A DNA stretch of 64,000 bases from Escherichia coli (lineage in GTDB: Bacteria > Pseudomonadota > Gammaproteobacteria > Enterobacterales > Enterobacteriaceae), in NCBI RefSeq assembly GCF_030013205.1, contig NZ_CP122648.1; one strand, written 5' to 3'. This document shows, piece by piece, positions 50,987 through 51,575 of the stretch. A program made the translations under genes and the position numbers. Numbering within the stretch: the stretch's first letter is position 1; every line of letters starts with the position of its first letter. The notes beneath the pieces were generated by a model. The model saw only the letters and a program-made list of their open reading frames with translations, ran no database searches and was not told the DNA's origin.

Positions 50987-51140
50987 TTACAGTTGCCCGA
51001 TGCGTAAGCTTATAGGGTCTACGCATTGGTGCAATTTATTGAATTTTAGTTTTTTTTTAGGCCGGATAAGGCGTTTATGAACTGACCACCAAAACCTGGA
51101 CAGTTTCAGTTAACCGGCTTTTTGATACTCAGTCCGGTAT

Positions 51141-51575
51141 TCAGGGCAAGATTACGAAAGCCCGCTCCCCGCAAGGACTGACGCGAGAAATGACATGAAT
51201 CGCTCCCCTGCGGCGACTCTTGTCATAAGAGTGCCGGAGCGTTTTTCCATCAATTACAATGACGTCTTTATCATCTGAAGAATGGCAGTCACGCATCCAG
51301 TTAATAAAGCACTCGTAAAATTTTTCAGGACTGATACAGGATACAACTCTGGCAATGGTATCGTGAACAGGAATACCATTTTCAAAATCACCATATTGCT
51401 TCAAAAAATCGAGATGAGTTTCCCCAAAATCCTCTATATCTTCCCAACCTTCTGCACCAGAAATAACGGCACAAATAGTCAGCAGTAGAATATCTGACAA
51501 TTTATGCTCCACTTTCCAGGCTTGTCTGTAATCGGGGATAATAGAAATATGTTCCATCAATTTTTTAAGTTCCAT
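51141..51575 (-). pseudogene. yhhI: truncated H-repeat-associated (ISAs1-family) transposase, N-terminal ~130 aa only
   Basis: [51 protein letters not shown]… matches the H-rpt N-terminus, then diverges after …AIHVIS and ends. Confidence 0.7.

Follow-up and report, generated by a model that had tools for sequence, protein, structure and literature searches.

In the window analysed here, a stretch of 64,000 nucleotides from Escherichia coli, a transposase gene of the H-repeat (H-rpt) type lies near yhhJ and breaks off after about 130 codons, close to palindromic DNA resembling REP sequences. Where was this gene broken, and what is the DNA that separates it from yhhJ? A reading made from the sequence alone had placed the end of the gene at the REP-like DNA. 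We aligned the region with full-length copies of the gene and with other loci that carry the same repeats. Pig ETEC chromosomes such as ETEC4067 proved collinear with the window (99.99%), and the collinear record L001 matched window 44900-58900 at 99.99%. We are highly confident that three repeat or mobile elements lie nested beside yhhJ as the outcome of successive events. Moving outward from yhhJ, one meets a degenerate palindromic unit (PU) and a linker, then a PU of which the left half remains, followed by 64 bp of IS1397 and finally the H-rpt right end (Table 1).

Table 1. Features between yhhJ and the left end of the H-rpt element (window coordinates)
Feature	Position	Strand	Details
yhhJ, ABC transporter permease	49862..50986	+	conserved chromosomal flank; PGAP annotation of the collinear L001
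First palindromic unit (PU/REP), degenerate	50995..51022	+	stem CCGATGCGTA/TACGCATTGG; aligns with the PU of the BIME downstream of cysM in L007
BIME linker, L-type	51023..51057	+	...TGCAATTTATTGAATTTTAG..., then T-run; from alignment
Y-type palindromic unit, left half	51058..51077	+	TAGGCCGGATAAGGCG and loop TTTA; right half absent
IS1397 (IS3 family) terminal fragment, 64-65 bp	51078..51141	-	end downstream of the transposase gene
Truncated transposase ORF, 144 aa	51141..51575	-	codons 1-129 native YhhI, then 14 out-of-frame residues
H-rpt / ISEc1-type element (ISAs1 family)	51142..51719	-	578 bp versus 1291 bp full length
H-rpt right terminal inverted repeat	51142..51159	+	CAGGGCAAGATTACGAAA; same sequence as the right ends of yhhI and ydcC in K-12
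Retained H-rpt 3' tail	51142..51188	-	47 bp: last 37 nt of the yhhI frame and 10 bp terminus
Internal deletion junction	51188..51189		...GACGCGAGA joined to AATGACATG...
H-rpt left terminal inverted repeat	51702..51719	-	CAGGGAAAGATTACGTAA on the minus strand

The BIME and the IS1397 fragment beside yhhJ

The REP-like DNA downstream of yhhJ is a real BIME, made up of a degenerate PU, a linker and a second PU of which the left half is present. Both REP-like strings picked out by the sequence-only reading are present, gccggataaggcg once, at 51061, and gcccgatgcgtaagc at 50995. The partner arm it proposed (gcatcgggc) does not occur on the plus strand, the real partner being TACGCATTGG, and its start coordinate of 51000 cuts through the first unit. 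The stem of this unit, which we take to be Z2-like from PU consensus sequences, is an imperfect palindrome of 10 nt with 90% complementarity. The BIME region folded with a minimum free energy of -33.4 kcal/mol (z = -4.5), and none of 200 shuffled sequences folded as well. The linker core TGCAAT(A/T)TATTGAATT was kept in all five aligned sequences, one of them from an unrelated locus; L linkers of BIMEs carry an IHF site. The PU sequence is extragenic, GC-rich and repeated at many loci, with BIME matches at cysM, znuB and other sites in many genomes. BIMEs of the same layout that contain IS1397 elsewhere match the window from 50993 onward and never into yhhJ. Like other E. coli BIMEs, the one described here lies right after a convergent gene end, pairs two opposed PUs with a conserved linker and belongs to a multi-locus family. 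Unlike a typical BIME, it has a degenerate first unit with an atypically extended hairpin and an interrupted second unit. A simple scan found no terminator-like site at the predicted BIME hairpin, and an Rfam scan of 50700-52400 returned a single chance-level match (rli42, 21.5 bits versus a gathering score of 80). Since the K-12 feature table contains no repeat_region entries even downstream of cysM, where another strain has a BIME, the missing REP annotation in K-12 is uninformative.

The second unit of this BIME is uninterrupted (TAGGCCGGATAAGGCGTCACGCCGCATCCGGCG) at the orthologous site of strain SCU-306 (L008), which carries no Rhs element there. In the window, only half of the REP is present because IS1397 split the unit. 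The terminus of IS1397, TGAACTG..., stands directly in the PU loop after TAGGCCGGATAAGGCG-TTTA, and the fragment begins 4 nt past ...GGATAAGGCG, which puts it in the position class also seen for the complete copies of L006 and L007. Those complete copies lie inside the PU loop and are accompanied by duplications of 3-4 bp. REP-specific insertion is a documented behaviour of IS1397, as cited in PMC1525189.

The fragment surfaced through a query joining both flanks of H-rpt, in which window positions of about 51057-51141 matched IS1397-annotated sequence at unrelated loci. Over window 51078-51142, the sequence shares 97% identity with the initial 65 bp of a complete, 1432-bp IS1397-type copy (L007 2525-3956), and the identity to the L006 copy, which PGAP labels as 'IS3-like element IS1397 family transposase', is 92%. 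Base 51142 (C) can be assigned either to IS1397 or to H-rpt, whose right end directly abuts the fragment. Judged by sequence identity and by its position in the loop of a Y-type PU, a position that the complete copies share, the fragment is IS1397, present as a scar only. Unlike the complete element, it retains 64-65 of the 1432 bp and has neither a transposase nor a second end, and the PU has also lost its right half. Within the 64-kb window we found no remainder of IS1397, be it the two-ORF frameshifted transposase or the second terminal repeat. The scar carries no PGAP annotation, escaped the earlier sequence-only reading, and no description of it was found in the searchable literature. It marks the yhhJ-side boundary of the RhsB region in K-12-like genomes.

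Among strains without Rhs beside yhhJ, the second PU of A37 (L009) is reduced to its right half, a mirror image of the window. In both SCU-306 and A37 (L008/L009 5100-10100), a sugar island with a galactitol-type PTS, an aldolase and an FGGY kinase occupies the place of the Rhs element.

The internal deletion of the H-rpt element

The alignments show 51142-51719 to be a dead copy of H-rpt (H-repeat/ISEc1, ISAs1 family) that has lost its middle and kept both ends. Against the K-12 element, for which a length of 1291 bp was set by the limits of homology between yhhI and ydcC, BLAST returned two blocks at 97-98%. Window 51694-51189 corresponds to K-12 positions 26-531 and window 51188-51142 to positions 1245-1291, with positions 532-1244 missing from the window copy. 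Although the first block starts at position 26, the whole left end is in fact kept. The right and left inverted repeats (IRs) paired with each other in an inverted-repeat search, and the termini read CAGGGCAAGATTACG at 51142 and CAGGGAAAGATTACG on the minus strand, ending at 51719. Terminal inverted repeats of the ISAs1 family start with CAGGG (ISfinder and reviews), and the window element bears repeats of this type. Moreover, homology to other lineages with the same deletion ends exactly at the left IR. No direct repeat that could represent a target-site duplication flanks H-rpt in either the window or K-12, which is consistent with later replacement of a flank.

The breakpoint was found, as the sequence-only reading had suggested, by alignment to a full-length yhhI. 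With strain D8 (L002), which carries the gene at the same locus, window 50900-51188 was collinear with 4001-4288 and window 51189-51800 with 5002-5613; exactly 713 bp are gone between 51188 and 51189. The same deletion was recovered against K-12 yhhI and against ydcC, and no microhomology was detected at the deletion ends in comparison with three full-length copies. The alignments are most simply read as a single illegitimate deletion inside H-rpt. As the identical junction occurs in 276 independent complete genomes, an assembly artefact can be dismissed. The parts of H-rpt that were retained are 95-98% identical at the nucleotide level to K-12 H-rptB / yhhI. The deletion removed most of the DDE catalytic domain and shifted the reading frame, and the description of the gene as a non-functional ISAs1-family remnant thus stands. 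A full-length ORF cannot be recovered by frame correction, as the 713 bp are physically absent, which leaves that description unrefuted. The 3' tail still contains the final 37 nt of the yhhI frame; they are now out of frame, and their frame-1 translation is the C-terminus of full-length YhhI.

The window copy resembles H-rptB / yhhI of the K-12 RhsB locus in its site, in how its right end is joined to the IS1397 fragment and yhhJ BIME, and in its CAGGG... repeats. It differs in the loss of most of the DDE domain with positions 532-1244, in the first 25 bp of its left end, which resemble the L002 allele, and in its upstream neighbour, an Imm57/Tlde1-like orphan module instead of yrhC/yhhH. Like the defective H-rpt copies of K-12 (ybfQ, ybfL and ybfD at RhsC; yncI at RhsE), it is decayed and lies downstream of an Rhs element, and the K-12 YbfQ protein is, like the window ORF, an N-terminal-only 'inactive transposase'. 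However, those copies have other breakpoints and loci, whereas the window copy has one clean internal deletion with both ends kept. At the left end, the first ~25 bp read CAGGGAAAGATTACGTAACGCTGC in the window and L002 (51702-51719) versus CAGGGAAAGATCATCAAAAGTTCAC in K-12 (L003 6235-6260), and the window version is nearer to the right IR than the K-12 version.

The 144-aa reading frame

The sequence-only reading had described an H-rpt ORF that matches for about 130 aa, diverges and stops. In substance this held: the true match reaches aa 130 and is followed by 14 more residues and a stop. As 713 is not divisible by three, the ORF leaves its native frame after 129 codons, with Ser130 shared with YhhI by coincidence. 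The 144-aa product shares 95% identity with K-12 YhhI over aa 1-133, of which the true correspondence stops at aa 130, and its TGA stop codon spans the boundary between H-rpt and IS1397. K-12 YhhI (378 aa) contains PF13808 (DDE_Tnp_1_assoc) followed by the DDE domain PF01609 (DDE_Tnp_1) at aa 102-343, the two-domain order of an ISAs1 transposase. In the Pfam search of the 144-aa ORF, PF13808 was the sole match (E=1.5e-34, whole domain covered) and the DDE domain was not detected, so the ORF lacks the second of the two domains. On this domain content, the window H-rpt is a defective member of ISAs1 by descent and not a functional one. PGAP annotates 51177-51575 in the collinear ETEC record as 'ISAs1 family transposase; incomplete; missing C-terminus'.

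Could the fragment have been kept because it is useful, for instance as a DNA-binding inhibitor of ISEc1 transposition, as truncated transposases act in other IS families? Three diverged lineages, 2-5 nt apart, all have the ORF intact; upstream of it lie a weak promoter-like site and a strong Shine-Dalgarno sequence (AAGGAG), and its PF13808 domain is complete. On the other hand, an intact ORF is expected anyway in a young allele, the allele is rare (about 5% of genomes), PF13808 has no known function, and PGAP treats the ORF as a pseudogene. Furthermore, the codon differences from K-12 yhhI comprise 6 synonymous and 5 non-synonymous changes, which give no clear signal of purifying selection. 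We consider it very unlikely that such a role would account for the fragment.

Distribution, flanks and proposed history

The segment from the half PU through IS1397 into H-rpt (51058-51171) was found at a coverage of at least 80% in 2112 of the 5426 complete E. coli genomes (~39%), K-12 included. In K-12 and the other carriers listed, the annotation gives yhhI as a complete gene. The REP/IS1397/H-rpt junction is an old one. The deletion allele was traced in the same 5426 genomes with a 60-mer centred on the deletion junction, which occurred in 276 of them, always once per genome and always on the chromosome. In the carrier records inspected, RefSeq describes the allele as a pseudogene of a partial ISAs1 transposase. 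A 200-bp query that included the yhhJ-side flank gave full-length matches of which every one listed has that flank. The deletion junction is identical and adjoins yhhJ in three carriers (the window, L011 and L012), all of which have G where the three full-length copies compared have C. The identical junction together with this C>G difference points to one origin of the deletion allele. The junction is a handy single-origin marker for some E. coli lineages, including pig ETEC/O139:H1 strains.

This distribution bears on whether the 578-bp element is a MITE-like, non-autonomous element mobilised in trans by the transposase of full-length ISEc1. Both IRs are intact and full-length ISEc1 copies coexist in carriers, directly adjacent in L012; nevertheless, such mobilisation is highly improbable given a junction present exactly once in 276 of 276 carriers and on no plasmid, the position beside yhhJ in all three carriers compared and in the listed 200-bp matches, and the fact that H-rpt transposition has never been observed experimentally (PMC3032704). 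That the gene was instead truncated at its 3' end by a break coinciding with, or caused by, the REP-like DNA is refuted: the ORF does diverge at about 130 aa, with REP-type sequence at most 120 bp from its end, but the two-block alignment places the 713-bp loss internally and the 47-bp right end is retained at 51142-51188, an intact terminus starting 65 bp beyond the half-REP with the 64-bp IS1397 fragment in between, and the same junction with the yhhJ flank exists in about 2100 genomes, with a complete yhhI in K-12 and the other carriers listed, which counts against truncation at the REP. The sequence-only reading was right that REP-type sequence is there and wrong to take it as the point of truncation. 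The anatomy is corrected to an internal deletion with both IS ends kept.

Four successive steps best account for this internally deleted element in its present surroundings. At first a BIME with two REP PUs and a linker existed downstream of yhhJ, as the intact version in the strain without an Rhs element shows. IS1397 would then have entered the loop of the second PU, as suggested by the position of its TGAACTG end beside the half-unit. In a third step, the right IR of H-rpt may have become joined to position 65 of IS1397, and the rest of IS1397 and the right REP half would have been lost, most likely by H-rpt recombination that attached Rhs-associated DNA. Finally, 713 bp were deleted within H-rpt in one sub-lineage, sparing both IRs and leaving in frame the N-terminal 129 codons, which encode DDE_Tnp_1_assoc and some 30 residues at the start of the DDE domain. 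A chimeric query found no yhhJ-BIME-complete IS1397 intermediate in the collection, the best matches starting at the BIME at other loci, and the reciprocal junction between the H-rpt left end and the remainder of IS1397 occurred in 0 of 5426 genomes. As no intermediate is kept, we infer the order of the second and third steps and the loss of the remaining IS1397. A query for an empty site joining both flanks of H-rpt was matched across both halves only by carriers of the element. Since transposition of H-rpt is unobserved, its insertion into IS1397 is not the sole possible origin of the junction.

The half-REP/64-bp IS1397/H-rpt junction may preserve, as a fossil, the event by which the RhsB island had its right boundary fixed. 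An IS1397 in the BIME would have been hit by H-rpt, which would then have served as a handle for swapping Rhs toxin/immunity cassettes beside yhhJ. We offer this reading as a whole tentatively, leaning slightly against it; if true, the 578-bp deleted H-rpt is a later decay product of that recombination handle. The product of the four steps is an inactive, non-autonomous IS relic that does no more than possibly make a 144-aa fragment and offer a stretch of homology through which Rhs loci can recombine. It is an already annotated, ordinary IS pseudogene allele and genome debris in many sequenced strains; its importance is small, and it suggests no new biology.

The sequences beyond the left IR differ among the three carriers. 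The window continues into sequence from downstream of an Imm57 gene, L011 into a different sequence followed by IS1, and L012 (NZ_AP045067.1, strain JNE23-011; 4019-8060) into 47 bp that lead to a complete ISEc1 and, beyond it, an rhsC-type element with ybfB. An RhsC-like cassette thus adjoins yhhJ in JNE23-011, an arrangement that suggests exchange between Rhs loci via H-rpt homology.

Repeated remodelling of the 3' flank of the Rhs element, which the sequence-only reading had also proposed, is borne out by the frameshifted rhs core, the abutting IS1, the orphan rhs fragment and the Imm57 gene that is called a pseudogene, and additionally by the occurrence of one deletion allele with three left flanks in three lineages. 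According to PGAP, the main rhs core gene (54221-58365) is frameshifted, and IS1 (53495-54192) lies 28 bp from its 3' end; the principal Rhs protein of the locus is probably inactive too. On the downstream side of the orphan rhs fragment, an apparent orphan toxin/immunity pair is encoded on the minus strand (window 52278-52571 and 51875-52189). Its 97-aa ORF has weak Tlde1/YkuD (L,D-transpeptidase-like) similarity, and its 104-aa ORF matches the whole Pfam Imm57 model (E=6e-46). PGAP places a longer Imm57 gene here, frameshifted and with an internal stop (pseudogene). A perfect (TTTTA)x4.6 microsatellite at 51868-51890 overlaps the 3' end of the Imm57 ORF (51875).
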